A stretch of DNA of 64,000 nucleotides from Candidatus Margulisiibacteriota bacterium (GTDB lineage Bacteria > Margulisbacteria > Termititenacia > Termititenacales > Termititenacaceae): contig JAISQA010000077.1 in the NCBI GenBank assembly GCA_031274525.1, forward strand, positions 1,194-65,193. Direction: 5' to 3'. The notes under the pieces are model-generated. The model saw only the letters and a list, made by a program, of their open reading frames with translations. It did not search any database and was not told the DNA's origin. Positions within the stretch are counted from its first letter, which is position 1. Each line of letters starts with the position of its first letter. A program made the translations under genes and the position numbers. This document shows positions 3,587-22,626 of this stretch, piece after piece.

Positions 3587-3727
3587 ATGCATGTCCTCCC
3601 GGATTGATTTTTACTGACTGATCCAGCCTAGCATAAATATAGATAAAAGTCTATAAAATTTAATGAATACAATCTATAAAGAAATGCCGACTAAATAACT
3701 AAGCTCTACAAAATAAGGAGGCGCTTT

Positions 3728-5079: not shown

Positions 5080-6219
5080 TTACAGCTTATACAAATTATG
5101 CATATCCTCCGCCAGTCTGGTTACTGCGTATAATTTCAGGATTTTACTCTGCGCTGCTTTACCGAGGCTTCTGCGCAGCGCCGCATTCCGGCTTAGCTCG
5201 ATAATTCTGTCCGCGAACACTTCCGGCTGGTTTTGCGGGCAGAGATAGCCGCTGATATTATTTTTGACAATATCCGGCACACCGCCGACTTCCGTGCTGA
5301 CTACCGGTTTGGCGCAGGCCATAGCCTCGATGAGCGTGACCGGTGTGCCCTCATTGCGCGAGGTCAGCACGACTATATCCAGATCCCCGTAGATTTTTTC
5401 CGGCTCCCGCAAAAATCCGGGCAAGAAAACCCTATCTTTCAGGCCTTTCAATTCCGCGGAACATTCCAGCTGCCGGCGCAGCTCGCCGTCGCCGATGATG
5501 ATAAACCTTATATTGTCCGTTTTGGCGCAGACAGCGGCGGCTATTTCCAGAAAATATTCAAAGTTTTTGACCGGCGTTAATCTGCCGACAATGCCGACCA
5601 GAATAGTGTCCGGCGGCAGGCCGTATTTCTTGTGCCAGCGTTTATTTTCCGGGAGGTTCTGGAATTTTTCCAGCTCAAACCCCAGCCGGATGACCGTGAT
5701 CTTTTCCGGTTTGGCGATGCCGTAATTGACCAGCTCGGCTTTTTGTTTATCAGAGACGGCGATAATTCTGGTGGTGCCCGGCGCCAGCAGTTTTTCGATA
5801 AGCATAAAAACCCGGCTTTTTAGCCGGCCAAAATAGCTGTGAAAAATATGCCCGTGAAAAGTGTGATAGATTTTTTTTACACCGGCCAGTCTGGCGGCCA
5901 GACGTCCGACCGTGCCGGCTTTGGCGGTGTGGGTGTGGACGATGTCCGGTTTTTCCCGGCGGATTATCCGGTAGAGCCGCCAGATAGTTTTGAGGTCTTT
6001 GCAGAAGCTGATTTCCCGCCCCAGTTCCGGCAGGACCAGCGTGCGCAGGTTTTTGTCTGCGGCCAGATATTCCATAGAGCCTTCCCCGGCGGCCAGCGAG
6101 CCGTAGACCAGCAGGGATTCATAACCGTAATTTTTGTCCAGATAATAATTGAGATTTGTGACATGTATCGCCGGGCCGCCGACATTGAGCCGGGCGATAA
6201 TGCGCAGGATCTTTGTCAT
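5080..6219 (-). CDS. glycosyltransferase family 4 (GT-B fold)
   Basis: N-terminal RLNVGGPAIHV motif and C-terminal GT1/GT4 nucleotide-sugar-binding region (EGTPVTLIEAMACAKPVVSTEVGG). It overlaps the upstream epimerase gene by 4 nt. Confidence 0.75.
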   Translation of the reverse strand: MTKILRIIARLNVGGPAIHVTNLNYYLDKNYGYESLLVYGSLAAGEGSMEYLAADKNLRTLVLPELGREISFCKDLKTIWRLYRIIRREKPDIVHTHTAKAGTVGRLAARLAGVKKIYHTFHGHIFHSYFGRLKSRVFMLIEKLLAPGTTRIIAVSDKQKAELVNYGIAKPEKITVIRLGFELEKFQNLPENKRWHKKYGLPPDTILVGIVGRLTPVKNFEYFLEIAAAVCAKTDNIRFIIIGDGELRRQLECSAELKGLKDRVFLPGFLREPEKIYGDLDIVVLTSRNEGTPVTLIEAMACAKPVVSTEVGGVPDIVKNNISGYLCPQNQPEVFADRIIELSRNAALRRSLGKAAQSKILKLYAVTRLAEDMHNLYKL

Positions 6220-7193
6220 AGGCTGCCGGACGGACTGCCCTGAACGCTTGCGGCAAGGGAAGCCCTGGCATAAAACTCAATGGTTTTGGCCAGACCTGCG
6301 TCAAAAGACACCAGCGGTTTGTAACCGAGCAGTTTTTCCGCTTTGCTGATGTCGGCCAGCGAGTGTTTGACATCCCCGGCGCGCTCCGCCGCGTACCGAG
6401 CGGTGATGTTTTTGCCGAAATACTTATTGATCTTTGCCACCAGCTGATTGAGGGATATTTCATAGCCGCAGGCGATATTGATAATCTGGCCGGCGGCGGC
6501 CGGGGGCGCAGCGCAGGCCAGCAGATTAGCCTGCACATTGTTGTCCACATAGGTGAAGTCCCGCGAGGTCAGCCCATCGCCGAAAATTACCGGCGGTGTG
6601 TCCTGCCCGATGGCCTTGATAAAGAGCGGAATGACCGCGGAATAGACAGAACAGGGATCCTGCCGGGGGCCGAAAACATTAAAATAACGCAGGATCACCG
6701 TCTCCAGTCCGTACAGAGCGCTGAAATTCTGGCAGTACAGCTCGCCGGCCAGTTTTTGAATAGCGTAGGGCGATTTGGGCCGGGTTTCCATGGTTTCCAC
6801 TTTGGGCATTACGGGCGAGTCGCCGTAAGCCGAGGACGACGCGGCGTACACCAGCCGTTTGGTTTTGGCGTCGCGCGCGGCGAGCAGCAGATTGAGCGTG
6901 CCGGTGATATTGGCGGCGTTGGTTTTGAGCGGGTCATCCACGGAGCGCGGCACGGAAGGTATGGCTCCGTGATGCAGGATATAATCCATGCTGTCCGCCG
7001 CCTTGCGGCAGGCCTTCAGGTCGGTCAGGTCCGCCTGTTGGAAGTCTATTTTACCCAGAAATGGCTCAATATTGGCTTTTTGGCCGGTGGCCAGATTGTC
7101 CAGCACGCGCACGGTGTCGCCGTTGTCGAGCAGGGCCTGGACTAGATTGGAGCCGATGAAGCCCGCTCCGCCAGTGACCAGAAATTTAGCCAT
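6216..7193 (-). CDS. NAD-dependent epimerase/dehydratase (UDP-sugar 4-epimerase-like short-chain dehydrogenase)
   Basis: N-terminal GGAGFIGSN Rossmann motif and the YAASSSAYG...YAIQK catalytic S/YxxxK arrangement. Confidence 0.8.
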   Translation of the reverse strand: MAKFLVTGGAGFIGSNLVQALLDNGDTVRVLDNLATGQKANIEPFLGKIDFQQADLTDLKACRKAADSMDYILHHGAIPSVPRSVDDPLKTNAANITGTLNLLLAARDAKTKRLVYAASSSAYGDSPVMPKVETMETRPKSPYAIQKLAGELYCQNFSALYGLETVILRYFNVFGPRQDPCSVYSAVIPLFIKAIGQDTPPVIFGDGLTSRDFTYVDNNVQANLLACAAPPAAAGQIINIACGYEISLNQLVAKINKYFGKNITARYAAERAGDVKHSLADISKAEKLLGYKPLVSFDAGLAKTIEFYARASLAASVQGSPSGSL

Positions 7194-8007
7194 TAAGTCC
7201 TCCGAAGTTTATCAGATTAAATTTATTGTAAATCATAGCGAAGAACTCCGGGTTTGTCATTAAAACGTACTCCTGCGCGGATATACCGGTGATCGCGGTC
7301 GGCGTATTATCCGCAGCGGCCAGCGGATGACACATGTACTCGGTGTTGTGCCGGGCCTGGCGCAAAATTAAGCGCAGGTGTTTCCCGGTCAGCTCCGCGG
7401 GCAGGGGCCAGAGCGCAAACACAGAAGTCAGGGCGCGGTTGGTCTGGACGCGGAGCAGTCTAGCTAGAAGACTGTTCCAGCGGCCGAAACAGAGAGAGAT
7501 AAATTTCCGCCAGAGCCGCTTGGCATCAGCGGGGTCGAACGGGTCGTATTTATTGAAAATAGTTTTTTCCAGCACCAGCCTGAGCGGGATGTTTTTCGCG
7601 CGGGCGAAGCGGGCAAATAAGGGAAATAATTGCGGCCAGTTGTGAATGTGCTGATGACTGTCCAGATGCGTCGGGGTCAGGCCGAAGTCCAGCATTTTCT
7701 GGTACTGGCGCGCCAGCTCGTCCTGAATAAATTTTTTTTTGATCTGTCCTTTTAGCAGCTGCCGTTCAAAATCGCCGCGATTTTTAAAGCAAGTCCCGGG
7801 CGGAGTCGAGGGGCTGCCCAGCGTCAGATTGAAATGCAGTCCGACGGGGATCCTGTCCCGCTTGGCCAGGTCGGCGGCGGCTTTGGAGTCCGGCAGGTCG
7901 ACCAGCAGCGTGGCCGAGGAAATGACGCCTTTTTTGTAAAGCTCCGCTATCGCTTTATTGGCGCTGGCGCTAATCCCGAAATCATCGGCGTTGATGATAA
8001 TATTCAT
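7186..8007 (-). CDS. ChbG/YdjC/HpnK-family carbohydrate deacetylase
   Basis: N-terminal NADDFGIS motif and HLDSHQHIH metal-binding motif typical of the YdjC family. It overlaps the epimerase gene by 8 nt, giving a three-gene operon with the GT4 gene. Confidence 0.7.
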   Translation of the reverse strand: MNIIINADDFGISASANKAIAELYKKGVISSATLLVDLPDSKAAADLAKRDRIPVGLHFNLTLGSPSTPPGTCFKNRGDFERQLLKGQIKKKFIQDELARQYQKMLDFGLTPTHLDSHQHIHNWPQLFPLFARFARAKNIPLRLVLEKTIFNKYDPFDPADAKRLWRKFISLCFGRWNSLLARLLRVQTNRALTSVFALWPLPAELTGKHLRLILRQARHNTEYMCHPLAAADNTPTAITGISAQEYVLMTNPEFFAMIYNKFNLINFGGLNG

Positions 8008-8906: not shown

Positions 8907-11900
8907 GTGCAGAGGAAACAGATTGCTATTGTAGATTTGCTGCAAAAAGCCGCGCGCTTTCTGGCCAATCCGTTTGAGGAGGCGGTGAATTTTGCCGGGC
9001 TGCTGCGGCTGGATATTCCGGCGGCGGACAAGAGAGCTATTCTGGGCTTGAGCCTGAAATATAAGCAGTATGTGGAAACGCCTAAACAGACGGCGGGGCC
9101 GACGCAGTTAGCGCCGCGGCTGACGGAGCAGGAAAAAGAGGCCTATTATTTAGCTAATAAACAGCGCCAAACTGCGGCGGAAACCGCGCGGTACCGGAAG
9201 CTGCTGCGGGAAATTGCCCCGCTGCATGACCCGCTCCAGTATCTGGCTAAAGCGCAGGCCGCGGACTTTTCCGGTCTGGACGAATACGGCGCGGCGCTGG
9301 TGCGGCAGTTGATAGCATCCCGGCAGGCCATAGCGGCGCTGGATCAAAAACAAACCCGGAAGCAGGCTATAGTTTTTGTCTTTAGCGTGTACCGGGATAT
9401 TAACCGGCTGAAGAGGCCGACAGAAACTTTTACCGGAGAAAATTTTCTGGAAGTGAAGTGCCGGCAGCTGGCTTATCTTTTCCATGACATGCGCTATTTT
9501 GACTGGCGGCTTCTGATCGCGGAGGATGAAGCCTGCGCGGAGCCGGACAAAAGCACCGTCGAGGCGATCAACCGCCTGCTGGACAATCCCTTTCACTTGA
9601 GCCGTTTTGCTCCTAAAGTGCAGACATTTTTTCCGGAGGATTTGCTGCCGGAGCTGGAGCAGTATCAGAAACGTTCCGGAATTTTTAAGAGTATTTTTGA
9701 CGCGGCTGAGCCCCGGGAGCGGGCCAGACTTTTCACCGAAGCCAGTCATAAAGGCGGCATGATCCATTTGCTTTTGCGCAAAGCTCTGACTTACCGGCCG
9801 GCAGCCGTTGTTTATACGGACAGCGACACTTCGCATGATCTGGGGGTCAGCGGTTTGCTGCTAAAGGAATTGTACTCCGGCCGGGCCGACGCGGTGATCG
9901 CTTCCCGGCGTGTCCCCGGCGCGGTGGTAGCCAATAAATCCAGAGAACGCGAGCTTTATTCCGCCGGTTATCACCTGCTGGCGGAAACTTTATTTGGTCT
10001 GGGTATTAAAGACACGCAGTCCGGTTTAAAGGCGCTGCGCCCGCAGGCTGTGGAGACGGTACAGTCCCGGCTAACGGAGCTGGGCATGAGTTTTGAGGTA
10101 GAGCTACTGAAGCTGCTGAAAAAAGACGGCTGGACGATCGAAGAAATACCGGCAGTCTGGCGGGACTCCCCCTATGAATCCAAATCGTCCGATCAGGCAC
10201 AGGCGATGGCCGCAGGCCTGCTGCGTGTTTATAGAGAAATTTACCGCCCGGAGACAACGGCTGAATTGCCGGTTGATTTGCCGGCGCGGCTGCAGGCCGA
10301 GCCGGAATATCCGGCCCTGCGCCGGCTGGCGGAAGATCCGGAATTGACCGCTTTTACCAGAAACAGCTTCCGGTTATTTTCCGCGGTGCAGGTGAAAGAC
10401 TTCCGGGATTTTCTGCGGCAGGCCCAGCTGTTCATTGAGCGGCTGGCCTACAATCACGACGCGATCACGCAGGCCAGTCTGGAAGAGCTGCTGGCCGCGG
10501 GACGCCGCTGTTTCGCTATTTTACGCCGGCGCAAATTGTTCGGTTTTCTGGCCGGTAATTATCCTGACCTGGGGCCGGTGCTGGAATTACTCCGCAAAGA
10601 CCGTAAATATCTGAAAATTATTTTTCCCCTGTTTTTTGGCCGCAATATTATCAGCGCTTTGCTGGGCGTGGACGGCGCGGCAGCGCTACAGCGGAAGGAA
10701 ACCCTGTCCGGCTGGCTGGCTCATTATGCGGCGGATATTCAGGCCGTCCGCAGCTTCAAACCGGCGCCGCTGGTCAGGCAGGAATATACTCCCCGCCAGT
10801 TAGAGCGCATAGCCGCTGCGGCGCTTTCCCTGCGGAATACCCTGCCCGGACGGGAGAGACCGCTCCAGATCGGGCTGGCGCTTTTGCATAATCGTAAAAT
10901 AGATAAAACCGCGCTGGAGATCCTGCGCACGCAGGTGCAGGATCTGAGCCGTTACATTCAAGATCTGCCCCAGCTACAGTTTGAGCTGCTCATCGCCGGC
11001 GCCGATAAACACCGGCTGACCCCGGCCGAGGAGCAGAGCCATCTAAAAAGCCTGAACACAGCGCAGATCCGGGTGTCTTATCTGCCGGTCAGCGACGATT
11101 TTGAAAAAGGCAAATTTATCCGTTATACCTGGAATGTGCTGGACCACCAGCGTACCCTATCCGCCACGGAACGGGGTAACGCACAGTATTATGCTCCGGA
11201 TCTGCTGGCTTTTATGGATTATTCTTACAAGATCAGCATTCTGGAAACGCTGCCCATGCTGGCCTGGGTTATGGAAAATTACCGCAATCCCGAAGACGCG
11301 GTGCTCATCGGCTCCCGCCGGCTGGACTTGAGTGAAGTTCTGCATAAATCGCAGGCGCTGGAACTGCGCAGCATGGCCCTGAATATACTGGTCAAAAGTT
11401 TATTTCCCAAACTGCACGGCGTGGAGGACACCCAGACCGGCCTGAAAATAGTCGGGCGGAATGTCTGGCATAGAGTGGATGCAACACCATGGTCGGCTGA
11501 CGGCTACGGCTGGGAAATAGAGCTGCTCAACAAAATAGCGGTCATTTATGACCGGGATAAAGAATTTAAGGAACGGGTGGACAGGCTGGCGGCCCTGCCG
11601 GCCAAACATGAAAAGTTGCTCAAGAAGCTGCTGAACGAATCATTCTGGACAGCGGAAAATCCCGGCAGGGCTGGCCGGGACGCGCTGGCGCAGAGCGTAG
11701 CGCGGTATAAAAAAATTATCCGGGATTTGCAGAAAGAAACTTTCTGGACAACGCAGAATAATATGCCCGCGGTGGATGCGCTGCTGGGCCAGCTGTATTC
11801 GGCCGCGCAGGACTACGACCGCATTATTCAAGAGCTGCTCGAGGCGCTTGACCCGGCAGTCCACGGGCCGGCCCTCAACGATTTGTTTCAGGAAACCTCC

Positions 11901-14618
11901 TGGGCCGCGGAAACCTGGTACCTGATCGCCAAAATAAAAAATAACAGCGCTTTACCGGAAGTCATCAAAGAAATGCCGGTGGCTTTTGATGACAATACCA
12001 GCCAGCTGAATATTACCTCCAGCGAGCAAGTGATCTGGAATGTGCTGGAGGAAATGCTCAAAATTCTGGCGCAGACCGCGGATTATACCTACTATGACCG
12101 GAGTAATGAACTGCGCTTTATCGCCGGCGGAGCCGACGGCATGGTGTTTGAGTACCGGAACAAAGTGGTCAAAATACCTAACGAAAACTTTGATGTGGAT
12201 TTTTATGATGTGCTGAAGAATCTGCTCCTGCCCGGCCAAAAAATCATGCAGCGGCACGAATACGCTCAGCGTTTGGTCGAACATACGCTGATCGATAAAC
12301 TGACGGCTCAGCCGGCGCTGGACAGATTGATCCCGCATCTGCGCGCCTGGCCGGAAGCCAATAGTTTTATTCTGCGGCTGATTGCTCTGCTGGAAAATAA
12401 AGATTTTAAATCTTCCGGCTATCCGCTGGCTTTTGCCCGCGGACAGGGGTTGATCATTCCTATGTCCCGGCAGGAAGAACCTTTTCAGGCCGTTTATCGA
12501 GGCCGGACTTATCACTTTACCCGGGAAGATAATATTCTGGTCATGGCCAAGGCCGAAGTGCTGAGGAACAGACTGCGCGAGATTATTATTAAGAACGATC
12601 TGCCCGGCTTCCGATCCCTGCTCAAAGATGTGACGGATTTGATGCGCAGGCTGTGGAGGCGCGGTTTGTTCGATATGGACACCAATATTATCGCGGATCT
12701 GGGCTATTACAAAGGGAAGCTGTACCTGCTGGATCCCGGGGAGATTATCGACAATCCGGGTCTGGATATTTTGCAACATTCAAAAGAATATCTTACCCGC
12801 CGCACAGACTACATAGAATTGCGCGGCCTGCTGTCCGGGACTGCGCAGGCCAAAATAATGCTGGGGGAATACCGCAGTCAGATGTACGGCTTGTTCGATT
12901 ATATGCTTGCCGATCTGGAACAGGGCGGCAAGTATTTTAATTCAGATAAGGGTGATTTTCACCTGCAAAATGTAGCCATTATTCAGGAGGAATATACTCC
13001 GGTTACGGATTACCGCGGAATTAAACAGCATTATCTGTTTCTCTCCAGAGCCGGAGTGAATAAAAGATACACGCCTTTTCGGGAGCATCTGCCCCTGATC
13101 AAGGCTCAGCCGCTGGCGGACATCGCGTATCTTTCCAATCCCGGCGACGCGCAGGTGAAGCAGGTTCTGGATTATGAGGCTCTGCAAAAACCCTTTAAAG
13201 GAAATGTTTTGTACGCGGAGCGGGGCGGCCAGGGCTTTCGGGCAGGTTTATTGAGCCTGGCTGCCGGCGGCAAAGAATATATTGCTTTCAACGGCAGGCC
13301 GTTGATCAAATGGGTCATGGGCAGCAATGCGGCGCTGGTCAGAGAGCTGCACAGTCCCGACACGGCGGATCCGCTGCTGATTATCGCTTCTATAGATAAT
13401 TATATGGATTACCGTCAGGAAGATATTGACCGCATAAATCAGTATTTTGCCCTGCCGGAAGCGCCGGGCGCCTTTTTTTATGATCTGCCGGCTTACAGCC
13501 ACGCCGAAAGAATGCCGGAGACTCTGGGCGCAATGGCGCATTATTTCAAGACCTCGAAAGTTTTTTGGCGGGATTATAGATATTTCATAGACAGCATTCC
13601 TTTTATAGCCGGTTTTGCCCGGCGTAAAAATAATCTGTCCGAGACCATCTTAAAAGCCGCTCTGACTAACTGGCGGGCTTTTTATGGCTCCCCGGAGCAG
13701 GCCAGGCAGGACGGGGGGGGGGGGGGTATGCCTTTTGCCACCCAGACAGCGGCCCTGCTGAAACGTTTTATTTTGTATGCTTCCAATCAAAAAAGAGGCA
13801 TCAAAGCCCCGTACACGCTCATTTTCAGACAGTCTTTTCTCCAGGATTTACGGGAAAGCATCGGGCCTAAAATACCGGATTATGCCGGACACGAGCTTAC
13901 CTGGTTCAATCTGCTGTGCGCCTGGAAATATGATCCGGCCCTATGGAGCATGCTCAAGCCCCGGCTGCTGAGCGCCGCCGTCTGGCAGGATATTTATGAG
14001 ACGATGCGCAGGCTGGCCGTCAAACATCATATTGATCTGTCCGATCATCAGCAGAATAAGCTCCGGGTTTTTTACGGCGACTGGGCGGCTCTGGATAATC
14101 CTTTTTATGATATTGTGAAATTTTTCAAACGCAACAGCGCCAGGCTCGGAAACACGCCCATTTATGTGGAAAAAAGATTTTTGGCGCCGCGCAGCAGCGA
14201 AAATGAGCAGCGCCGGGAAAACCTGTTTACGCCCGCTTACTATGCCAGAATAATTGAAAATTGTGAAAACAATGATGTGGTTATTGTAGGCAATCCGGGA
14301 TACATTAAAGGCCGGATTAAAATTACGGCGCAGGATTTCCGTTTGCAGCAGTCCCAGCGCAAAACCCTCCTGTACGAAGTCAGCCTGCCGCCGGGCTATG
14401 TCATCGAGGTGCCGAAAAATCATATGCTGGTGCAGTTAACCGATCCGGATAAAACGCGCCATTATTATTCGATGACCCTGCGCCCGTTATCCCGCACGGA
14501 TCTCGCTAAAGAAATGGTTTACCGTTATGAGCTGGCGGAAAACAGCACTACCTATACGCCCCGGAAATACCAGCCCTACGAAGAATTTTTTAACGAACGC
14601 TTCCGGAGCCAGCGCTAA
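8907..14618 (+). CDS. giant (1903 aa) multidomain protein with two GT2 (GT-A fold) glycosyltransferase modules, a protein-kinase-like motif set and about 700 aa of unassigned C-terminal sequence
   Basis: GTG start with GAGAGGG Shine-Dalgarno. First GT2 module, around nt 9350-10200: IVFVFSVYRD..LLIAEDEACAEPDKST..VVYTDSDTSHD..IKDTQSGLKAL. Second, degenerate GT2 module, around nt 11000-11550: ends with VEDTQTGLKIV. Kinase-like motifs, around nt 12110-12750: Gly-loop-like IAGGADGMVFEYRNKVVKIP, later DMDTNIIADLGYY..LLDPGE resembling HxD..N/DFG. No transmembrane segment is evident. The recognisable motifs are on this strand, so the antisense ORFs in the track are rejected. Confidence 0.7.
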   Translation: MQRKQIAIVDLLQKAARFLANPFEEAVNFAGLLRLDIPAADKRAILGLSLKYKQYVETPKQTAGPTQLAPRLTEQEKEAYYLANKQRQTAAETARYRKLLREIAPLHDPLQYLAKAQAADFSGLDEYGAALVRQLIASRQAIAALDQKQTRKQAIVFVFSVYRDINRLKRPTETFTGENFLEVKCRQLAYLFHDMRYFDWRLLIAEDEACAEPDKSTVEAINRLLDNPFHLSRFAPKVQTFFPEDLLPELEQYQKRSGIFKSIFDAAEPRERARLFTEASHKGGMIHLLLRKALTYRPAAVVYTDSDTSHDLGVSGLLLKELYSGRADAVIASRRVPGAVVANKSRERELYSAGYHLLAETLFGLGIKDTQSGLKALRPQAVETVQSRLTELGMSFEVELLKLLKKDGWTIEEIPAVWRDSPYESKSSDQAQAMAAGLLRVYREIYRPETTAELPVDLPARLQAEPEYPALRRLAEDPELTAFTRNSFRLFSAVQVKDFRDFLRQAQLFIERLAYNHDAITQASLEELLAAGRRCFAILRRRKLFGFLAGNYPDLGPVLELLRKDRKYLKIIFPLFFGRNIISALLGVDGAAALQRKETLSGWLAHYAADIQAVRSFKPAPLVRQEYTPRQLERIAAAALSLRNTLPGRERPLQIGLALLHNRKIDKTALEILRTQVQDLSRYIQDLPQLQFELLIAGADKHRLTPAEEQSHLKSLNTAQIRVSYLPVSDDFEKGKFIRYTWNVLDHQRTLSATERGNAQYYAPDLLAFMDYSYKISILETLPMLAWVMENYRNPEDAVLIGSRRLDLSEVLHKSQALELRSMALNILVKSLFPKLHGVEDTQTGLKIVGRNVWHRVDATPWSADGYGWEIELLNKIAVIYDRDKEFKERVDRLAALPAKHEKLLKKLLNESFWTAENPGRAGRDALAQSVARYKKIIRDLQKETFWTTQNNMPAVDALLGQLYSAAQDYDRIIQELLEALDPAVHGPALNDLFQETSWAAETWYLIAKIKNNSALPEVIKEMPVAFDDNTSQLNITSSEQVIWNVLEEMLKILAQTADYTYYDRSNELRFIAGGADGMVFEYRNKVVKIPNENFDVDFYDVLKNLLLPGQKIMQRHEYAQRLVEHTLIDKLTAQPALDRLIPHLRAWPEANSFILRLIALLENKDFKSSGYPLAFARGQGLIIPMSRQEEPFQAVYRGRTYHFTREDNILVMAKAEVLRNRLREIIIKNDLPGFRSLLKDVTDLMRRLWRRGLFDMDTNIIADLGYYKGKLYLLDPGEIIDNPGLDILQHSKEYLTRRTDYIELRGLLSGTAQAKIMLGEYRSQMYGLFDYMLADLEQGGKYFNSDKGDFHLQNVAIIQEEYTPVTDYRGIKQHYLFLSRAGVNKRYTPFREHLPLIKAQPLADIAYLSNPGDAQVKQVLDYEALQKPFKGNVLYAERGGQGFRAGLLSLAAGGKEYIAFNGRPLIKWVMGSNAALVRELHSPDTADPLLIIASIDNYMDYRQEDIDRINQYFALPEAPGAFFYDLPAYSHAERMPETLGAMAHYFKTSKVFWRDYRYFIDSIPFIAGFARRKNNLSETILKAALTNWRAFYGSPEQARQDGGGGGMPFATQTAALLKRFILYASNQKRGIKAPYTLIFRQSFLQDLRESIGPKIPDYAGHELTWFNLLCAWKYDPALWSMLKPRLLSAAVWQDIYETMRRLAVKHHIDLSDHQQNKLRVFYGDWAALDNPFYDIVKFFKRNSARLGNTPIYVEKRFLAPRSSENEQRRENLFTPAYYARIIENCENNDVVIVGNPGYIKGRIKITAQDFRLQQSQRKTLLYEVSLPPGYVIEVPKNHMLVQLTDPDKTRHYYSMTLRPLSRTDLAKEMVYRYELAENSTTYTPRKYQPYEEFFNERFRSQR
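13713..13726 (+). repeat. G14 homopolymeric tract inside the giant CDS (encodes DGGGGGM)
   Basis: Direct count of 14 consecutive G at 13713-13726. It is in frame as sequenced. Confidence 0.9.
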
Positions 14619-14723
14619 CTTCGCGCCCGCGGGCTGGTGGCCGAGCGCGTATTTCCCTGCGCGAACTCATTCAGCAGGTGCAGATTGACAATCCGCCGTT
14701 TTTCGCCGAAAATTTCCGGCAGA

Positions 14724-14915
14724 ATGAAAACACTGGATTGTGCCTGCCCGAATACCGACTGCGCAGATCACGGCGAATGTTCGGCCTGCGTTGCCAAACA
14801 CAGAGCCGCAGACAGCCTGACTTATTGTTTTTTTCCGAACAATGACGGCGACAAAAGTTTAGAAAATTTTTATCATCATTTAGAAAAACGTTTTACAAAG
14901 GAGACCGCAGAATGA
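14724..14915 (+). CDS. small cysteine-rich protein (CxCPx3Cx2HGxCx2C motif; putative metal-binding 'zf-like' domain)
   Basis: MKTLDCACPNTDCADHGECSACVAKH.. with 63 aa from the internal ATG. Its stop TGA overlaps the efp ATG (ATGA), which implies translational coupling. The start is uncertain and the ORF extends upstream to 14637. Confidence 0.4.
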   Translation: MKTLDCACPNTDCADHGECSACVAKHRAADSLTYCFFPNNDGDKSLENFYHHLEKRFTKETAE

Positions 14916-15478
14916 AAGAAGCTATCGACTGCAAACCCGGGCAGATTATCAAAAAAGACGGACAGCTCTTTGTCGTGATGAGCTGGTACCCGCACAAAAT
15001 CGGCGACCGCGGCGGCATCGTGGTGGATATGAAGCTCAAAAATCTGGACACCGGAAATATTTCCATGGTGCAGCCCCGCTCTCAGGACAAATTTGACGAT
15101 GTGGTGCTGGAACGCAAACAGGTGCAGTATTCCTATCAAGACGGCGAGATGTACGTGTTTATGGACAGGGCAACCTTTGACCAGATCTCCATCAATAAAG
15201 ATTTGATCGGCGATAATTTAGGTTTTTTAAGAGAAAACATGGAGCTGGATATTTTTTTCCACGAAGGCCGGGCTGTCTCTGTCGTATTCCCGACTTTTGT
15301 CGAAATGGAGATCAGCTATACCGAGAATGTGGCGCGCGGCGACACCTCCGGCAAAGTGATGAAGAAGGCCCAGCTGGAAAACTCCGGCTACGAGATAGAC
15401 GTGCCCAGCTTTTGCAATATCGGCGACAAAATAAAGATCGACACGCGCACGCAGGAGTACGTCGAAAGAGTAAAATAA
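14912..15478 (+). CDS. efp: elongation factor P
   Basis: Full-length similarity to EF-P, including the conserved C-terminal RGDTSGKVMKKAQLENSG...IDTRTQEYVERVK. The loop sequence HKIGDRGG replaces the common KPGKG motif. Confidence 0.9.
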   Translation: MKEAIDCKPGQIIKKDGQLFVVMSWYPHKIGDRGGIVVDMKLKNLDTGNISMVQPRSQDKFDDVVLERKQVQYSYQDGEMYVFMDRATFDQISINKDLIGDNLGFLRENMELDIFFHEGRAVSVVFPTFVEMEISYTENVARGDTSGKVMKKAQLENSGYEIDVPSFCNIGDKIKIDTRTQEYVERVK

Positions 15479-15707
15479 GCGGTTTAATCAGCGTCCAGCT
15501 TGTCAGAAACCGCCGCAGTTGCTATACTTTTTGCCTGTTTTTGCGGGCTTAGCTAACGGCGCTACGCTTGTGAAATTTGACGCACTTCACTGTCGCTTGC
15601 GACCGAGCCTGTATACCTATCAGGCGAGGAAGTCCTAGTGCGCAAAGGCGCACGGAGGTGAAGTTCAGGGCAGTTGGCAGTCTGTGTAGAATATGTGCTT
15701 CGTTTCT

Positions 15708-15783
15708 GCGGGCTTAGCTCAGTTGGTAGAGCGCGACCTTGCCAAGGTCGAGGTCGTCGGTTCGAGCCCGATAGCCCGCTCCA
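15708..15783 (+). tRNA. tRNA-Gly (anticodon GCC)
   Basis: Cloverleaf with 7-bp acceptor stem GCGGGCT/AGCCCGC, D-loop AGTTGGTAGAGC, anticodon stem-loop CGACC-TTGCCAA-GGTCG, T-arm GTCGG-TTCGAGC-CCGAT and encoded CCA. It is close to E. coli tRNA-Gly(GCC). Confidence 0.9.
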
Positions 15784-15918: not shown

Positions 15919-18900
15919 ATGGACAAAGCCGCCGCTAAACAAAGTATAGCCGAACTGGTCAGAAGATTTGGCGAAAACATAGCTTCCTATAAAAACGGTG
16001 TGTATAACGAAACTCAAACTAGAAGAGAATTTATCGACCCGTTCTTTGAAGCACTGGGCTGGGATGTGGATAATAAACAGGGCCTGGCGGAAGCCTACAA
16101 AGAAGTAATCCACGAATATAAAATAGATAATGTCAAACAGGATTTTCGCCAGTCACCGGATTATTGTTTTACTATCTACGGGCAGGAAAAATTTTTTGTC
16201 GAGGCCAAGAAACCCAGCGTAAATATCAAACAGGATGTCGCTCCAGCCTATCAGGTGAGAAGTTATGCGTGGAGCGCCGGACTGCCTATCTCTATTGTTA
16301 CCGATTTTGAGGAATTTGCGGTATATGACTGTGTGCCAAAACCCAATGCCAGAGACAAAGTGGAAACGGCGAGAATTGAATACCTGACTTTTAGAGAATA
16401 TATCGATAAATTCGATTTTCTCTGGGACACCTTCTCCAAAGAGCGGGTCTTGCAGGGCAGTTTTGATAAATATGTTGCCGCAGATAAAGGCAATCGCGGC
16501 AAAGAAACTGTCGGCAGGGAATTTCTAAAACTTATTGAGGAATGGCGCAGAAGCTTGGCCAATAACATCGCCGCTAATAATGACCTGTCCGATGAGGAGC
16601 TGAATTATGCTGTTCAGCAGACTATCGACAGGATAATTTTTTTGATTATCTGCGAAGATAGAAAAATTGAACCAGCCAATAGGTTAAAAGAATTAGCCGA
16701 AACCCCCAATATCTATAAAAATCTTTTCCGGCTTTTTAGCGAGGCAGACGAAAAATATAATTCCGGTCTGTTCGATTTCCGCAAAGACACTATTTCTGCC
16801 AGAATTGTTATTGATGATAAAAAATTAAAAACTCTGCTGGACGATTTATATAATAGCCCGTATCAGTTTTCGCGGATACCTGTTGAAATACTGGGCAGTG
16901 TGTACGAGCAATTTTTGGGTAAAGTTATCCGCAAAACCAAGACTGCGGCGGTCATTGACGATAAGCCGGAAGTAAAAGTCGCCGGCGGTGTTTTTTACAC
17001 GCCGCAATATGTGGTGAACTACATTGTCAGAAATACTGTTGGCACTGTTATCAGCGGCAAAACTCCGGCGGAAATAAGCAGGATAAAAATAGTTGACCCG
17101 GCCTGCGGCAGCGGCTCTTTTCTGATCGGCGCGTATAAATATCTGCTGGACTATCACCAAAAATATTATCTGGACAATCCGAAAAAAAACAGTCCGTTGA
17201 CCCCGGCCGGAGAACTGACCACAGCGGAAAAGAAAAGGATTTTGCTGAACAATCTCTACGGCGTGGACATCGACGCGCAGGCGGTGGAAGTAACCAAACT
17301 GAGTTTGTTATTGCAGGCTCTGGACGGCGAGACAGAGGCATCCATTAACACCCAATTATCTTTGCTCAAAGAACGGGTTTTGCCCACGCTGGACAATAAC
17401 ATCAAGTGCGGAAATTCGCTGGTCTCCAACGAGGGAACACTTTTTACAGTGGATAATTCGGTGAAGCCATTCGATTGGAAAATAAATTTTCCGGCAGTTT
17501 TCGCGCAGGCCGACCGCCAATGCGGCCGGCACGCCATCGCGGGCAGAGAATGTCCCGCTCGGCAGGGCGGCTTTGATATTGTCATCGGCAATCCGCCGTA
17601 TGTCAAAGAATACACAGCCAGAACCGCTTTTGAGCCGGTGAAAAATTCACATCTGGCCAGATATTATCAGGGCAAAATGGATTTATGGTATTTCTTTGTC
17701 TGCTGGGGATTGGATATTCTGAAAGAAAAAGGCCTCTTGAGTTTTATCGCGCCGAGCAACTGGATAACCAATGCCGGAGCTTCGATATTGCGGAATAAAG
17801 TTCTAACTGAAACAGAAATACAGAGATATTTTGATTTTAATGATTATAAAGTCTTTGAAAATGCTGGTATTCAGACAATGATATTCTGTTTGCAAAAGAA
17901 AACACCGCGCAGACAATATGCTTTTACATACAATAAGGTTACAGATAAAAAAATCGATGAGACTGCGTTAAAAAATGTGCTTATGGGCAGTGAAAAAAAT
18001 CCGGCTATTGAACAAGTGAAAATAAGAGTCCAGCCGGAAATAATGAAAGATAGACTGATTGCTTTTGTTGATGCAAGTATTGATGAAATATTAGAGAAAA
18101 TCATTAAAGCGAGTAATTATTTACTTACTGAAAAAAATGTCGCGCAAGGTATTGTTTGCCCACAAGATTTTGTTATAAAGAAACACTTAGAAGAATTGAA
18201 AAATTCAAGCATAAAAGAAAAAGATGGTGTTTTTATAATATCTTCTGAAGAGCTTCGAAAGCTTAAATTATCAAGCGCAGAAAGAAAAATTATTAAGCCA
18301 TATTATACTACTGAACAATTACACAACTATTATGGTGATGACAAAAACATATCGTGGGTGATTTATTCAGATATGAATGTAAGAAAGAATATTAAAGATT
18401 ATCCTAATATAAAAGCTCATCTTGATAAATATAAAAAGATTATAACTTCTGATTTTGCGCCTTATGGCTTGCACAGAGCAAGAGAACAGGCGTTTTTTGA
18501 GGGTAAAAAAATAATCTCTTTGCGTAAGACTGCCCGACCTTGTTTTACTTATACGGATTTTCCCTGTTATGTTTCGCAAACCTATTTTTCTATCAAACCA
18601 CAGGATATAAACTTGAAATATCTAACAGGCTTGCTTAACTCCTCGCTGGTTAATTTCTGGCTTTATCACAAAGGCAAAAAACAGGGTGAACAGTTGCAGG
18701 TCGACAAAGAGCCTCTGCTACAAATACCTATCGTAAAAACTGATGATAAGCAGGTAGAAAACACCATAATTAAATGCGTGGATGAGATTATCGCATTGAA
18801 AAAACAGCTGCAGGGTGTTTCGCTGGCAAATCAGAAAGAGCAGATAGAAAATAGGATTAAGTTTTTGGAGAATAGGATTGATGAGGTGGTTTTCAAGTTA

Positions 18901-18942
18901 TATGGATTAGTGGATGATGATATAAAAATTGTTAATAAATGA
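15919..18942 (+). CDS. type IIG (MmeI-like) restriction-modification enzyme: N-terminal PD-(D/E)xK endonuclease fused to gamma-class N6-adenine DNA methyltransferase and target-recognition domain
   Basis: Endonuclease motif: SPDYCFTIYGQEKFFVEAKKP (D..E.K). MTase motif I: IVDPACGSGSFL. Motif IV: IGNPPY. Length of 1007 aa and domain order match the MmeI/Eco57I-type single-chain enzymes. Confidence 0.85.
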   Translation: MDKAAAKQSIAELVRRFGENIASYKNGVYNETQTRREFIDPFFEALGWDVDNKQGLAEAYKEVIHEYKIDNVKQDFRQSPDYCFTIYGQEKFFVEAKKPSVNIKQDVAPAYQVRSYAWSAGLPISIVTDFEEFAVYDCVPKPNARDKVETARIEYLTFREYIDKFDFLWDTFSKERVLQGSFDKYVAADKGNRGKETVGREFLKLIEEWRRSLANNIAANNDLSDEELNYAVQQTIDRIIFLIICEDRKIEPANRLKELAETPNIYKNLFRLFSEADEKYNSGLFDFRKDTISARIVIDDKKLKTLLDDLYNSPYQFSRIPVEILGSVYEQFLGKVIRKTKTAAVIDDKPEVKVAGGVFYTPQYVVNYIVRNTVGTVISGKTPAEISRIKIVDPACGSGSFLIGAYKYLLDYHQKYYLDNPKKNSPLTPAGELTTAEKKRILLNNLYGVDIDAQAVEVTKLSLLLQALDGETEASINTQLSLLKERVLPTLDNNIKCGNSLVSNEGTLFTVDNSVKPFDWKINFPAVFAQADRQCGRHAIAGRECPARQGGFDIVIGNPPYVKEYTARTAFEPVKNSHLARYYQGKMDLWYFFVCWGLDILKEKGLLSFIAPSNWITNAGASILRNKVLTETEIQRYFDFNDYKVFENAGIQTMIFCLQKKTPRRQYAFTYNKVTDKKIDETALKNVLMGSEKNPAIEQVKIRVQPEIMKDRLIAFVDASIDEILEKIIKASNYLLTEKNVAQGIVCPQDFVIKKHLEELKNSSIKEKDGVFIISSEELRKLKLSSAERKIIKPYYTTEQLHNYYGDDKNISWVIYSDMNVRKNIKDYPNIKAHLDKYKKIITSDFAPYGLHRAREQAFFEGKKIISLRKTARPCFTYTDFPCYVSQTYFSIKPQDINLKYLTGLLNSSLVNFWLYHKGKKQGEQLQVDKEPLLQIPIVKTDDKQVENTIIKCVDEIIALKKQLQGVSLANQKEQIENRIKFLENRIDEVVFKLYGLVDDDIKIVNK

Positions 18943-19472
18943 AGATGCGAAAAATTAAGAAATTTTTAAATAACCAATGGACAATAGGTATTGGTACTGG
19001 GCTTACAGTATCTTTTATCATCTTGATAATTAACTCGGTAATACAAAGAATAAGCATACTGCAAAGCATATATAGTATTTTGTCATTGATTATTAAGTTT
19101 GTTTGGTGTGTATTAACATTTGGCATTCCAGTATGGCTTTTAATTATAGTGGGTTTAACATTGATACTAATACTAAAAATTATCCCAGAGCCTCAAGAAC
19201 AATGGGAAAAATATACTCTTGGGTATTATAAAAACTGGCTTTTTGAATGGAGTTACGTTGAGGATGCGTTTGGTCAAACGAGGATTAATAACTTGCGACC
19301 TGTTTGTACCAAGTGTCGATGTGATTTATCAACAAATTATCATGAGCTCTATTGTCCTAAATGTTCTAATAAATACTATATACTAGAATCGAATACATTA
19401 AGTGATTTGGAAAAAGTTATTATTGGAAATCTAAAAACCGGAGAATATAAATTAATAGATAAAAAGGAGTGA
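18939..19472 (+). CDS. small membrane protein (3 predicted TM helices) with C-terminal CxxC...CxxC zinc-ribbon
   Basis: Start ATG overlaps the RM stop codon (ATGA). Hydrophobic segments: IGIGTGLTVSFIILIINSVI, ILSLIIKFVWCVLTFGIPVWLLIIVGLTLILILKII. C-terminal CTKCRC...CPKC. Confidence 0.5.
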   Translation: MKMRKIKKFLNNQWTIGIGTGLTVSFIILIINSVIQRISILQSIYSILSLIIKFVWCVLTFGIPVWLLIIVGLTLILILKIIPEPQEQWEKYTLGYYKNWLFEWSYVEDAFGQTRINNLRPVCTKCRCDLSTNYHELYCPKCSNKYYILESNTLSDLEKVIIGNLKTGEYKLIDKKE

Positions 19473-19479
19473 TTTTAGT

Positions 19480-20502
19480 ATGTCTAAGAAAATACCAATA
19501 ATTGGCTACACTCACTTCTTCCAAGACATTAAACAGCGTATTAAATCCGCTCAATATGAAGCCTTAAAATCTGTAAATAAAGAGATGATTCGACTGTACT
19601 GGGACATTGGTAAAAAAATTGTAGATAGTCAGCAAAAACACGGCTGGGGAAAATCGATTGTGGAATCTTTGGCTAAAGATTTACAAGCTGAATTTTCTGG
19701 TATTTCTGGTTTTTCAGCAGATAATTTGTGGCGTATGCGGAAATTCTATCTGAATTATAAAAATAAGCCAAAACTTGCACCATTGGTGCAAGAAATTGCC
19801 TGGGCGCATAACATTGTTATCCTAGAGAAATGCAAAGACGATCTAGCTAGAGAATTTTATATCCGTATGACAAAGAAGTTTGGCTGGACGAAAAATGTAC
19901 TTATTCATCAGATTGAGAATCAGAGTTATGAGAAAACTTTGTTAAATCAAACAAATTTTAGTAAGACCTTACCAGCTAAGATAAAAGGACAGGCACAACT
20001 TGCTGTCCGTGATGAATATACTTTTGACTTTCTGGAATTATCAGATGAACACAGAGAAAAAGATCTTGAACGAGCAATGATAGCCAAAGTAAATCAATTT
20101 CTGATCGAAATGGGTGGTGCCTTTGCCTTCATGGGTAATCAATATCGATTAGAAATAGACGGTGAAGAATATTTTATAGATTTATTATTGTATCATCGCC
20201 GATTGAAATGTTTAGTGGCAATAGAATTAAAAATCGGCAAATTTTTACCGGAATATGTCGGGAAGATGCAGTTTTATCTCTCGGCATTAGATAATGTTAT
20301 TAAAGAAAAAACCGAAAATCCGTCTATCGGAATAATCTTATGCAAAGAGAAAAATCGCACTATTGTTGAATATGCGCTAAAAAATAGCAGAAAACCTATT
20401 GCCGTGGCAAATTATCGAATAACATCAACCCTGCCCAAAGAATTACGCAAAGAACTTCCGGCGCCGGATCAAATCAGACAGATTTTAGAAAAGATGCAAT
20501 AA
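19480..20502 (+). CDS. DUF1016/YhcG-family PD-(D/E)xK nuclease
   Basis: C-terminal YFIDLLLYHRRLKCLVAIELKIGKFLPEYVGKMQFYLSALD matches the YhcG/DUF1016 nuclease core (D..ELK). The N-terminal helical domain is typical of the family. Confidence 0.75.
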   Translation: MSKKIPIIGYTHFFQDIKQRIKSAQYEALKSVNKEMIRLYWDIGKKIVDSQQKHGWGKSIVESLAKDLQAEFSGISGFSADNLWRMRKFYLNYKNKPKLAPLVQEIAWAHNIVILEKCKDDLAREFYIRMTKKFGWTKNVLIHQIENQSYEKTLLNQTNFSKTLPAKIKGQAQLAVRDEYTFDFLELSDEHREKDLERAMIAKVNQFLIEMGGAFAFMGNQYRLEIDGEEYFIDLLLYHRRLKCLVAIELKIGKFLPEYVGKMQFYLSALDNVIKEKTENPSIGIILCKEKNRTIVEYALKNSRKPIAVANYRITSTLPKELRKELPAPDQIRQILEKMQ

Positions 20503-20521
20503 TTTATAAGAGGATAATTCA

Positions 20522-21688
20522 ATGGACAAAGTATTATTATATTATCGGCAATATAAAGATGCACCAGAATATATTTTAGCCGAGTATATTTCCACAAGAA
20601 AAATAAAGATAAGTTTTTATAAAAGAAGTCCGTGGTATTTCGAATATGAAGATGAGCAGGATTATAAAACGATGGATTATTCCTGCACATTTAAGAATAA
20701 AGATGCTACAAAATTTATAAGCCTGTTTACCAAGAATAAAAACCCGCAAGAGTTTTTACAAAGGCTCAAAGCAAAGTTTGCCAAAAGTACTTCACTGGAA
20801 AATATCTTAGAGTTTGCAGATAAACATAAGATAAATTATAAACTTTATGATAATTACTACCCGGAATGGCCAGAAAATATATTTCCATTAGATTATAGAT
20901 ATAAAAAACTCTATGACGAAAAAGGTCAATTTGTTATTCCAGAATTATACGAACCGCCTCAAAATGGTATCAGAAAACTCTTCGATTCTCGTGGAAACTT
21001 ATTTCTAGAAGCCAATTATGTACAAGGCAAGAAAAATGGTTTGTGTACTATATATGAGAATAATAAGATTAAGAAAGAGCGTTATTATGTAGACGATTTA
21101 TTGAGTGGTGTCTATAAAGAATATCATTCAAACGGTAAAGTCAAAATTGAGATGCTTTATACAAATGGTAATCGTGATGGTTTCGCTAAAGAGTACCATC
21201 CAAATGGTCGTATAAAACTGGATTCTTTTTTCAAAGATGATTTACAGGAATGTGTTTCAAACGAATACTATGACAATGGGAAATTAAAACTGGAATCAAC
21301 CTGGGCACGAGATAAAAGCGAAGGCGTAGTAATCACCTACGATATAAATGGAAATATTGAAAGTAAACTGCCTCGCAAGCACGGAAAATTAGACGGTGTA
21401 ATAAGAGATTATTATCCCAATGGTAAATTAAAGTGGGTAGAGGATTATAAAAAAGGACAAAGACACGGTAAGTCTATTAAGTATTATAAATCTGGTAAAA
21501 TAGCGTGTATACAGCATTGGCGTAATGACAAGAAGCGTAATAGCCTCGGCTATTACCAAAATGGAAATGTTTATTATAAATTTTTATTTGATAAAAACGG
21601 CAAAAGACACGGCACATCAAAAACCTATCATAAAAGCGGTAAAATACGAACAATAACAATATACAAAAATGGTAAAGTTGATGATTAG
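20522..21688 (+). CDS. MORN-variant (YwqK-family) repeat protein with a 150-aa unassigned N-terminal domain
   Basis: About 10 tandem repeats of the form Y..NGK.K.E..Y..GK..G....Y (e.g. YYPNGKLKWVEDYKKGQRHGKSIKYYKSGK). Confidence 0.65.
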   Translation: MDKVLLYYRQYKDAPEYILAEYISTRKIKISFYKRSPWYFEYEDEQDYKTMDYSCTFKNKDATKFISLFTKNKNPQEFLQRLKAKFAKSTSLENILEFADKHKINYKLYDNYYPEWPENIFPLDYRYKKLYDEKGQFVIPELYEPPQNGIRKLFDSRGNLFLEANYVQGKKNGLCTIYENNKIKKERYYVDDLLSGVYKEYHSNGKVKIEMLYTNGNRDGFAKEYHPNGRIKLDSFFKDDLQECVSNEYYDNGKLKLESTWARDKSEGVVITYDINGNIESKLPRKHGKLDGVIRDYYPNGKLKWVEDYKKGQRHGKSIKYYKSGKIACIQHWRNDKKRNSLGYYQNGNVYYKFLFDKNGKRHGTSKTYHKSGKIRTITIYKNGKVDD

Positions 21689-21711
21689 ATTTCAAATAGG
21701 AAATATAAATA

Positions 21712-22626
21712 ATGGCATTATTTAAGATAAATAATTTAAGCGTCGAGAAACTATCTGCCAGCCGGCCTGATCTAGAGCGTAGTTTACAGAAGCTCTTTGA
21801 AAACAATTTAGAAGAAATCCTAAATATTATTTTTCTAGCGCACGAATATACAACGAGTTTTGGCGGTAGGATTGATACTCTTGGCATAGATAAGAACGGA
21901 GCCCCTTGTATAATTGAATATAAAAAAACTAAAGATGATAATGTTATTAATCAAGGGTTGTCTTACTTGCGCTGGTTGCTTGACCATAAAGCTGATTTCG
22001 AAAAACTATGTAAAACTCATAAAGTAAATACTGATATTGATTGGGATTCACCGCGAGTTATTTGTATTGCTGAAAGTTATAATAAATTTGATATTGATAC
22101 AGCAGATATTTTACCGATTAAGATTGAATTGTTATGTTATAAACTTTATGAGGATAATATCTTATATATTGAGGCAGAAAATCATCAGAAAGTAAAAATT
22201 TCTACATCTGGCATAACAAAAAAAGCTAAACAATATAAAGAACAGGCCGAACATTTACAAAAGATTTATTCTATTGATGATCACCTCATTGGGATTAATA
22301 AGCAAACTAAAGAGTTATTTTATAACTTACGTGAAAAAATTATCTCGCTTGATAAAAACATTGTTGAGGAGGCAAAAGCTAAATATATTGCCTATAAAAC
22401 AGCAACAAATTTCACGGATATTGTGATTCAACGATCCGGATTGAAAATATTTATAAATATCAAAAGCGGACAACTTATTGATCCACAAGGATTGGCGCGT
22501 GATTTAACAAAACCAAAACATATCGGACATTGGGGGAATGGTGATTATGAAACAACTCTTGAAAAAGAAAATGAACTTGAAACAGTTTTTGCTTTAATCA
22601 AACAAGGATATGATTTAAATAAATAG
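21712..22626 (+). CDS. NucS/DUF91-like PD-(D/E)xK nuclease-fold protein with a C-terminal domain shared with the Bro-N protein at 33690..34319 (DUF5655-like)
   Basis: GRIDTLGIDKNGAPCIIEYKK..VINQGLSYLRWL fits the RecB-like core of NucS/DUF91. The C-terminal KAKYIAYKTATNF...HIGHWGNGDYETTLE aligns with the C-terminus of the 33690..34319 protein. Confidence 0.5.
   Translation: MALFKINNLSVEKLSASRPDLERSLQKLFENNLEEILNIIFLAHEYTTSFGGRIDTLGIDKNGAPCIIEYKKTKDDNVINQGLSYLRWLLDHKADFEKLCKTHKVNTDIDWDSPRVICIAESYNKFDIDTADILPIKIELLCYKLYEDNILYIEAENHQKVKISTSGITKKAKQYKEQAEHLQKIYSIDDHLIGINKQTKELFYNLREKIISLDKNIVEEAKAKYIAYKTATNFTDIVIQRSGLKIFINIKSGQLIDPQGLARDLTKPKHIGHWGNGDYETTLEKENELETVFALIKQGYDLNK

Follow-up and report, generated by a model that had tools for sequence, protein, structure and literature searches.

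The efp locus considered here lies in a 64,000-nucleotide stretch of a Candidatus Margulisiibacteriota genome assembly, referred to below as the window. It is a plain two-gene unit, in which a conserved predicted promoter is followed by the gene for a DUF6485-family mini-protein, by efp, and then by a tRNA-Gly gene. A giant open reading frame (ORF) ends upstream of the unit, and a cluster of three carbohydrate-related genes lies further upstream on the opposite strand. The features are listed by position in the window:

5080-8007, minus strand: genes for a YdjC protein, an NAD-dependent epimerase and a GT4 glycosyltransferase (the GT4 gene at 5080-6219), named from family matches
8907-14618, plus strand: giant ORF of 1903 amino acids, outside the efp unit
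14685-14713, plus strand: predicted sigma-70-like promoter, TTGACA, 17-nt spacer, GAAAAT (promoter scan, 10 of 12 positions)
14724-14915, plus strand: gene for the DUF6485-family mini-protein (mini-ORF), 63 amino acids, with C6, C8, C13, C19, C22, H26 and C35
14897-14903, plus strand: Shine-Dalgarno sequence AAAGGAG of efp, 8 nt 5' of its ATG and within the 3' end of the mini-ORF
14912-15478, plus strand: efp, elongation factor P (EF-P), 188 amino acids, with an arginine at the loop tip, a member of the clade with the GDRGG loop
14993-15016, plus strand: codons of the loop H28-K-I-G-D-R-G-G35, placed by alignment with reference EF-Ps
15708-15783, plus strand: tRNA-Gly(GCC), 3' of efp, found by ARAGORN and Rfam

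The efp gene of the window encodes a bona fide EF-P. The three Pfam domains EFP_N, EFP and Elong-fact-P_C all match above their cutoffs (37.3, 80.3 and 74.3 bits, respectively), and the protein passes the NCBIfam model TIGR00038 'efp' with 201.1 bits against a cutoff of 185.8. Its AF2 model (pLDDT 89.7) has the EF-P fold, with a TM score of 0.76 to 3oyy_A, and domain I of the model superposes on domain I of EarP-bound EF-P (5wxk_B) at 1.3 A. The closest PDB matches are the P. aeruginosa EF-P entries 3oyy and 6j7m. An identity as EfpL/YeiP was rejected on the failure of both models for that protein (TIGR02178 and NF003392), the scores being 98.6 bits against a cutoff of 264 and 110.7 bits against a cutoff of 216. 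E. coli EfpL (PDB 8s8u) shares with the window EF-P an arginine at the loop tip, unmodified in EfpL, but the two proteins are only 28% identical. EfpL carries a longer loop of the SPTARGAAT type, which is not found in the window EF-P, where the predicted turn has four residues.

Alignment with P. aeruginosa EF-P, E. coli EF-P and E. coli EfpL, checked against PDB 3oyy, 6enj and 8s8u, places R33 (codon 15008-15010) at the tip of the loop, in register with R32 of P. aeruginosa EF-P and K34 of E. coli EF-P. DSSP applied to the AF2 model gives a predicted turn of four residues, G31-D32-R33-G34, between strands 18-30 and 35-44. The residue preceding the tip arginine (position -1) is thus Asp32, and position -2 is occupied by G31, not by proline. 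Compared with the S-G-R-N turn of EarP-type EF-Ps, the glycine at -1 has been replaced by aspartate, and strand beta3 contains one extra residue. An unmodified Lys-type EF-P with the PGKGP loop (P30-G-K-G-P34) could be ruled out, as K-I-G-D-R-G-G has neither the tip lysine nor the flanking prolines. The motif GDRGG was kept in all nine of the GDRGG-clade sequences examined, and every clade member has aspartate at -1. In P. putida EF-P, the G31A substitution at the -1 position reduced the rhamnosylation rate to <1% and left the factor inactive (PMC6544042). Since glycine is critical at this position in P. putida, the aspartate argues, by analogy, that the GDRGG clade would no longer be a substrate of EarP.

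The window EF-P is 86% identical to that of Ca. Termititenax aidoneus (locus L001) and 88% identical to that of Ca. T. persephonae (L002), both of them termite-gut Margulisbacteria, and 90% identical to the EF-P of two metagenome contigs (L081 and L082) with the same HKIGDRGG loop. The organism of the window is a Margulisbacterium from a termite gut, akin to Candidatus Termititenax, as judged by these identities and by an identical mini-ORF protein in a Margulisbacteria entry of NCBI. The remaining genome matches are EF-Ps of Alcaligenaceae or Burkholderiaceae, at 44-48% identity. A search of 5.8 billion proteins found the K[IK]GDRGG loop to be common to only six clusters (P0001-P0006), 64-90% identical. 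In a neighbor-joining tree the GDRGG clade is monophyletic (100/100) and groups with clusters P0007-P0010 as its sister (99/100), all inside the group of Arg/EarP-type EF-Ps. Members of the arginine-EarP type (P. aeruginosa, P. putida, S. oneidensis and N. meningitidis; 3oyy, 6j7m and 5wxk) are 43-50% identical to the window EF-P, which is phylogenetically nested among them. They share with it the three-domain fold, the tip arginine, the absence of proline at -2 and the C-terminal signature RGDTSGKVMK...IDTRT, but they have an SGRN loop with glycine at -1, whereas the window EF-P has GDRG with aspartate at -1 and a beta3 longer by one residue. The original prediction, which had described a loop reading HKIGDRGG instead of KPGKG (nt 14993-15016) in a protein resembling the EarP-type Arg subfamily, is therefore confirmed on both points, the resemblance by the nesting in the tree, by the alignment to EF-P subfamilies with R33 at the tip, and by the PDB matches 3oyy and 6j7m. 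EarP-type EF-Ps outside Betaproteobacteria have been taken as horizontal transfers, and many EF-Ps have no known modification (Brewer and Wagner, PMC11388002). A literature search found no link between EF-P and Margulisbacteria.

Genes for EarP are typically found directly upstream of efp in this type of EF-P, and the GDRGG clade departs from this pattern. In 76 of the 78 proteobacterial loci, the gene immediately 5' of efp, in the same orientation, encodes an EarP homologue, and earP is likewise directly 5' of efp in all four sister-clade contexts (L167 from cluster P0011, L168 from P0010, and L169 and L170 from P0009). In contrast, EarP was found in none of the seven GDRGG-clade contexts, namely the window, T. 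aidoneus, T. persephonae, L081, and the more distant loci L083, L164 and L171, where the search covered the 64-kb window and, in the relatives, up to 10 kb on either side of efp (less on short contigs). The EarP seed sequence was itself recognized by Pfam as PF10093 (389 bits), and the best hit in the window to an HMM built from more than 70 sequences had an E-value of 4.9. The claim that no earP lies nearby thus holds throughout the 64 kb. So does the companion claim that no EarP-like GT-B gene is present; the one GT4 gene of the GT-B fold, on the minus strand at 5080-6219 and thus 8.7 kb from efp, is not EarP-like. Pfam searches of the window's large ORFs (the listed ORFs apart from a short one at 36939-37298) turned up no genes of the EarP, Epm, DHS, YmfI-type or Rml families. 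When the sister-clade EarP was compared with 5.8 billion proteins, the best 120 matches named no Margulisbacteria or Termititenax, a weak negative result given that most of these matches are unnamed. Apart from EF-P, no protein family was common to more than two of the seven GDRGG-clade neighbourhoods, and a shared neighbour gene was on this basis rejected as a candidate EF-P modifier.

Upstream of efp, a conserved box (~14684-14717) of the form ATTGACAATCC...TTTTC[GA]CCGAAAATTTCC is present in four Termititenax-group genomes (the window, T. aidoneus, T. persephonae and L081). Judging from its sequence, the promoter-like element at 14685-14713 would act as a promoter, from which the mini-ORF and efp are most likely transcribed as one unit. 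An Rfam search for a leader or riboswitch around the efp operon returned nothing but the tRNA-Gly. The mini-ORF has no obvious Shine-Dalgarno sequence, and its ATG is 11 nt past the -10 hexamer. Its product begins MKTLDCACPNTDCADHGECSACVAKH, and its full sequence, MKTLDCACPNTDCADHGECSACVAKHRAADSLTYCFFPNNDGDKSLENFYHHLEKRFTKETAE, contains the pattern CxCPx3Cx2HGxCx2C. The match to Pfam PF20095 (DUF6485) is marginal, at 24.4 bits against a cutoff of 24; the score is 99.9 bits with a DUF6485 HMM built in this analysis, and the protein is 100% identical to an NCBI entry from a metagenome-assembled genome, 'DUF6485 family protein [Candidatus Margulisbacteria bacterium]'. The 63-residue ORF is a genuine DUF6485 gene.

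The TGA of the mini-ORF (14913-14915) overlaps the ATG of efp (14912-14914) as ATGA. The 63-residue cysteine-rich ORF and its overlap had been read correctly from the DNA, and on this overlap the two genes had been described as translationally coupled. The overlap itself stands, but coupling is not required: efp has a Shine-Dalgarno sequence of its own, which is kept as AAAGGAG, TAAGGAG or AAAAGGAG in T. aidoneus, T. persephonae and L081, even where the mini-ORF is gone. Because this sequence is conserved in all four genomes, the ATGA overlap is unnecessary for the translation of efp.

The mini-ORF is decaying in close relatives of the window. Behind the same promoter box, L081 and L082 have a 44-residue copy with the C-terminal third missing; T. 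persephonae has only a frame-broken relic of the C-terminus, ...AEDKSLVNFYHKLVKNILL followed by a stop (HMM E=0.07); and in T. aidoneus the mini-ORF is absent, with ~40 nt separating the promoter box from the efp Shine-Dalgarno sequence. Despite this decay, the EF-Ps of the window and of all these relatives have an unchanged HKIGDRGG loop. Between the window and L081, dN is 0.37 for the mini-ORF and 0.07 for efp, a difference of about five-fold, with dN alone compared because dS is saturated. The Cys/His ligands are all kept in the mini-ORF copies of both the window (intact) and L081 (truncated). In the distant GDRGG-clade loci L083, L164 and L171, no DUF6485 gene was found. The DUF6485-efp arrangement is evidently ancestral within the genus. 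Some local function of DUF6485 with efp is formally conceivable; nevertheless, we read the mini-ORF as a passenger and not as a factor in the maturation of EF-P.

Members of DUF6485 (PF20095) are uncharacterised cysteine-rich mini-proteins that match the window mini-ORF in length and in their C-x-C-P...C...C-x2-C...H...C pattern. A scan of 1.84 billion representative sequences gave 87 matches at E<1e-3 (full HMMER), ~55 of which are proteins of 50-100 amino acids. The residues C6, C8, P9, C13, C19, C22, H26 and C35 are conserved across the DUF6485 alignment (A2). None of 80 metagenome DUF6485 loci (392 kb altogether, with 700 nt or more of downstream sequence in 54 of them) contained efp, the loci having been drawn with a narrower alignment (A3) and major-subfamily patterns (TDSLP[YF]CLF), such that the window's own subtype is possibly under-sampled. 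Neighbours that recur in these 80 loci are ArsR-type regulators (25 loci), a Fer4/CMD protein (15), ArsP_1 permeases (14), HgcB-like ferredoxins (9) and CdhD/HgcA-like proteins (7). The family thus keeps company elsewhere with ArsR, ArsP, ferredoxin, CMD and HgcA-like genes, and it precedes efp only in the Termititenax genus. This sequence pattern and these neighbours suggest that DUF6485 is most likely a small cysteine-rich protein with a metal- or metalloid-related role. No mention of DUF6485 was found in a literature search.

The giant ORF (8907-14618) ends 66 nt before the promoter of the efp operon and 106 nt before the mini-ORF, with the conserved promoter lying between. Its identity was sought by Pfam searches with the whole protein and with four pieces of it, and by NCBIfam, PADLOC and PDB sequence searches, with nothing above threshold: no Pfam family matched at E<=0.01, there was no PDB sequence match at E<=1, and PADLOC gave no match. 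Sub-threshold GT2 signals came from PF00535 (12.9 bits, cutoff 23.3) and from AglJ, TIGR04182 (18.6 bits, cutoff 325). Two diverged GT2-like cores can be recognized at about nt 9771-10247 and 11274-11531, and an internal repeat (BLASTP E=5e-8) contains the motif DTQ[ST]GLK. The weak GT2 scores together with this repeat make the description 'GT2-like' plausible, though below every curated threshold. Where a large GT2 protein had been reported immediately upstream, the 1903-residue ORF is indeed there, but its GT2 assignment is sub-threshold only. No homologue of the giant ORF was found in loci L001-L080, nor subsequently in T. aidoneus, T. persephonae, L081, L083, L164 and L171. Specific to this lineage and carrying degenerate GT2-like modules, the giant ORF is a neighbour that has no link to efp.

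The reading that we favour, with moderate confidence in its parts taken jointly, is that the window EF-P is an EarP-derived Arg-type EF-P that has lost its linkage to earP and is probably unmodified, with the mini-ORF and the giant ORF as incidental neighbours. The GDRGG clade would descend from EF-Ps of the EarP type, which are rhamnosylated on arginine; the earP-efp pair was most likely acquired by horizontal transfer, and earP would later have ceased to lie beside efp. In this genus, the DUF6485 gene would have been inserted between efp and its promoter, and sister lineages would now be losing it again; its product, rich in cysteine and histidine, is probably metal-binding and would have its family home in ArsR/ArsP/ferredoxin clusters. 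As for the factor itself, it would bind stalled ribosomes and most likely push an unmodified Arg33 loop toward the peptidyl-transferase centre, as may be supposed from unmodified Arg-type EF-Ps that have been tested. That this EF-P might carry no modification was the fallback idea of the original prediction, and it is still the most likely reading; for the window protein we consider it somewhat better than an even chance, the absence of EarP covering the 64-kb window and flanks of up to 10 kb in relatives. There is precedent for such a factor. A 2026 study in BMC Biology (PMC12931083) counts 206 EF-Ps of the Arg type, spread over 14 phyla, that have no known modifier; several of them work unmodified in E. 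coli. Given these proteins, the category of Arg-type EF-P without EarP is already known. The GDRGG clade resembles them in its arginine tip, in the lack of a co-located EarP and in being plausibly active unmodified; it differs in its apparent origin, as a secondary offshoot of the EarP-linked lineage and not as an Arg-type family in its own right.

Several other explanations have to be weighed against this one. The window EF-P could still be a normal EarP substrate, with Arg33 rhamnosylated through an unlinked earP and dTDP-rhamnose genes, and with adjacency alone lost. Its nesting in the EarP-type family, the retained tip arginine and the non-proline residue at -2 would all suit a substrate, as would the predicted fit of domain I to its EarP-bound counterpart, and EarP is reported to be fairly promiscuous toward loop variants when over-produced, tolerating several substitutions (PMC6544042, PMC12931083). 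However, adjacency that holds in almost all of the proteobacterial loci and in all four sister-clade loci fails in every GDRGG-clade context, the critical glycine at -1 is an aspartate here, the window has no Rml genes, and, for the little that mostly unnamed sequences can say, neither Margulisbacteria nor Termititenax appears by name among the best 120 EarP matches; we regard continued rhamnosylation by EarP as unlikely. Another enzyme, unlinked or only loosely linked to efp, might instead make a new arginine modification, the YdjC/epimerase/GT4 cluster being an example. Its GT4 protein has a GT-B fold like that of EarP, the loop appears to be under a specific constraint, given how strictly GDRGG is conserved, and in T. 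persephonae the three genes start 21 nt after efp (in the window they occupy 5080-8007). Yet T. aidoneus lacks the cluster within 10 kb of efp in both directions, the available sequence of L083, L164 and L171 does not contain it, and in the window it lies on the minus strand, 7 kb from efp with three genes between. Its best families are enzymes of polysaccharide and glycolipid metabolism (a TviC-like epimerase, a PEP-CTERM/EPS GT4 and a chitin disaccharide deacetylase), and simple synteny would be enough for two close relatives to share it. The presence of the cluster near efp is accordingly treated as plain synteny between close relatives combined with rearrangement, and its involvement with EF-P, or that of a similar enzyme, seems to us very improbable.

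The explanation put forward in the original prediction was that the DUF6485 mini-protein, by itself or together with the giant GT2-like protein, forms a new EF-P modification or maturation system for this loop type. The ATGA overlap, the shared conserved promoter, the ancestral adjacency of the mini-ORF to efp within the genus, and the GT2-like motifs of a giant ORF on the same strand would all fit such a system. Comparison among relatives largely refutes it. In genomes with the identical EF-P loop, the mini-ORF has been shortened, has decayed to a relic or has been lost; older members of the GDRGG clade are without DUF6485; efp is missing from all 80 DUF6485 loci; no relative has the giant ORF near efp, and the GT2 signals of that ORF fall below every curated threshold; and efp has its own conserved Shine-Dalgarno sequence. 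Neither ORF co-occurs with the HKIGDRGG subtype of EF-P, an outcome that the original prediction had itself named as counting against its idea, and the proposal finds no support; we consider it extremely improbable as an account of this EF-P. More generally, it is very likely that the neighbours of efp are not an EF-P modification system, and the window locus reveals no new one. For the K[IK]GDRGG clade as a whole, a further idea combines two variants: Arg33 may carry a novel modification made by an enzyme encoded away from efp (for example GT4/epimerase/YdjC), or Asp32 on the lengthened hairpin may serve as an intramolecular substitute for rhamnose after the loss of EarP. We hold this to be quite unlikely.

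The systems that modify EF-P are a textbook example of how a translation factor and the enzyme acting on it co-evolve. To our knowledge, about half of all bacteria are without a known EF-P modification system. Within this setting, the possible novelty is a clade that is nested in an EarP-linked lineage, is itself no longer linked to earP, and differs at a residue on which EarP depends; the lineage seems to have shed the rhamnosyltransferase from an EarP-type EF-P and remodelled the acceptor loop. If confirmed, the GDRGG clade would be a natural experiment in which a modification-dependent EF-P turned modification-independent, and it would help in engineering EF-P and in assessing EarP as a target for antibacterials. 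The survey of DUF6485 loci provides a first picture of the genomic context of that family, in ArsR/ArsP/ferredoxin/HgcA-like clusters. Downstream of efp, the same tRNA-Gly(GCC) occurs in T. aidoneus and L081 and is a conserved neighbour in this genus; in the window it forms the edge of a low-GC defence island.

The 63-residue protein encoded immediately upstream of efp belongs to DUF6485, an uncharacterised family on which no paper was found in the literature. In 80 metagenome loci around DUF6485 genes (L084-L163), many of them on contigs with termite-gut style JGI names, the recurrent neighbours were ArsR regulators, ArsP_1 permeases and Fer4/CMD proteins, together with a pair comprising a CdhD/HgcA-like protein and an HgcB-like ferredoxin; the recurrence of these genes alongside DUF6485 suggests that the family has a metal(loid)-related or redox function. 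The 1903-residue ORF further upstream (window 8907-14618) gave no above-threshold domain in Pfam, NCBIfam, PADLOC or PDB sequence space. Within it a GT2-like core is duplicated, at residues of about 320-400 and about 790-875.

A three-gene cluster is shared with Candidatus Termititenax persephonae, in which it lies immediately 3' of efp. The window carries it in inverted orientation, 7 kb upstream of efp, with a nitroreductase, the giant ORF and the DUF6485 mini-ORF in between.

Clusters of a YdjC deacetylase-like protein, an NAD-dependent sugar epimerase and a GT4 glycosyltransferase
Window 5080-8007, (-) strand: the three-gene cluster
T. persephonae efp locus (L002) 10583-13466, (+) strand: the same cluster

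On contig L083, which encodes the 67% identical EF-P P0003 (loop KKGDRGG), the genes at 10634-11909, directly after efp, encode a radical SAM/SPASM protein and a chagasin-like Inhibitor_I42 protein, a pair seen in none of the remaining members of the GDRGG-loop clade. In Candidatus Termititenax aidoneus, efp is adjoined by a gene for a tail-fibre-like protein (L001 8498-9607, (-) strand), which is 33% identical to a window protein (2825-3592, (-) strand) with a weak match to phage baseplate Gp10_C. The two may be what is left of prophages or tailocins close to the tmRNA/tRNA region.

Between efp and tRNA-Gly, window 15500-15561 holds a promoter-like site (TTGTCA-17-TATACT) and, after it, an incomplete copy of the 5' end of tRNA-Gly (GCGGGCTTAGCTAACGGCG). 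This element had no match in Rfam, and the same arrangement is found in T. aidoneus (L001 10568-10640); it may be a scar left by integration, or a small RNA that has escaped recognition. Immediately 3' of tRNA-Gly is a defence island (15919-22626) with a GC content of 33%, versus about 53% in the remaining window, which looks like a horizontal acquisition integrated at tRNA-Gly.

Defence island genes
15919-18942: Type IIG restriction-modification enzyme (PADLOC, 593 bits)
19480-20502: PDC-S02/YhcG nuclease-like protein
20522-21688: MORN-repeat protein
21712-22626: PDC-S18/DUF5655 protein

The other genes of the window are ordinary housekeeping genes, encoding RecA, RNase Y, RelA/SpoT, a MiaB-like protein, Dxs, DapB and a class I aminoacyl-tRNA synthetase that is probably IleS. 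The window also encodes an RNase P RNA.

47469-47791, (-) strand: bacterial class A RNase P RNA, scoring 209 bits
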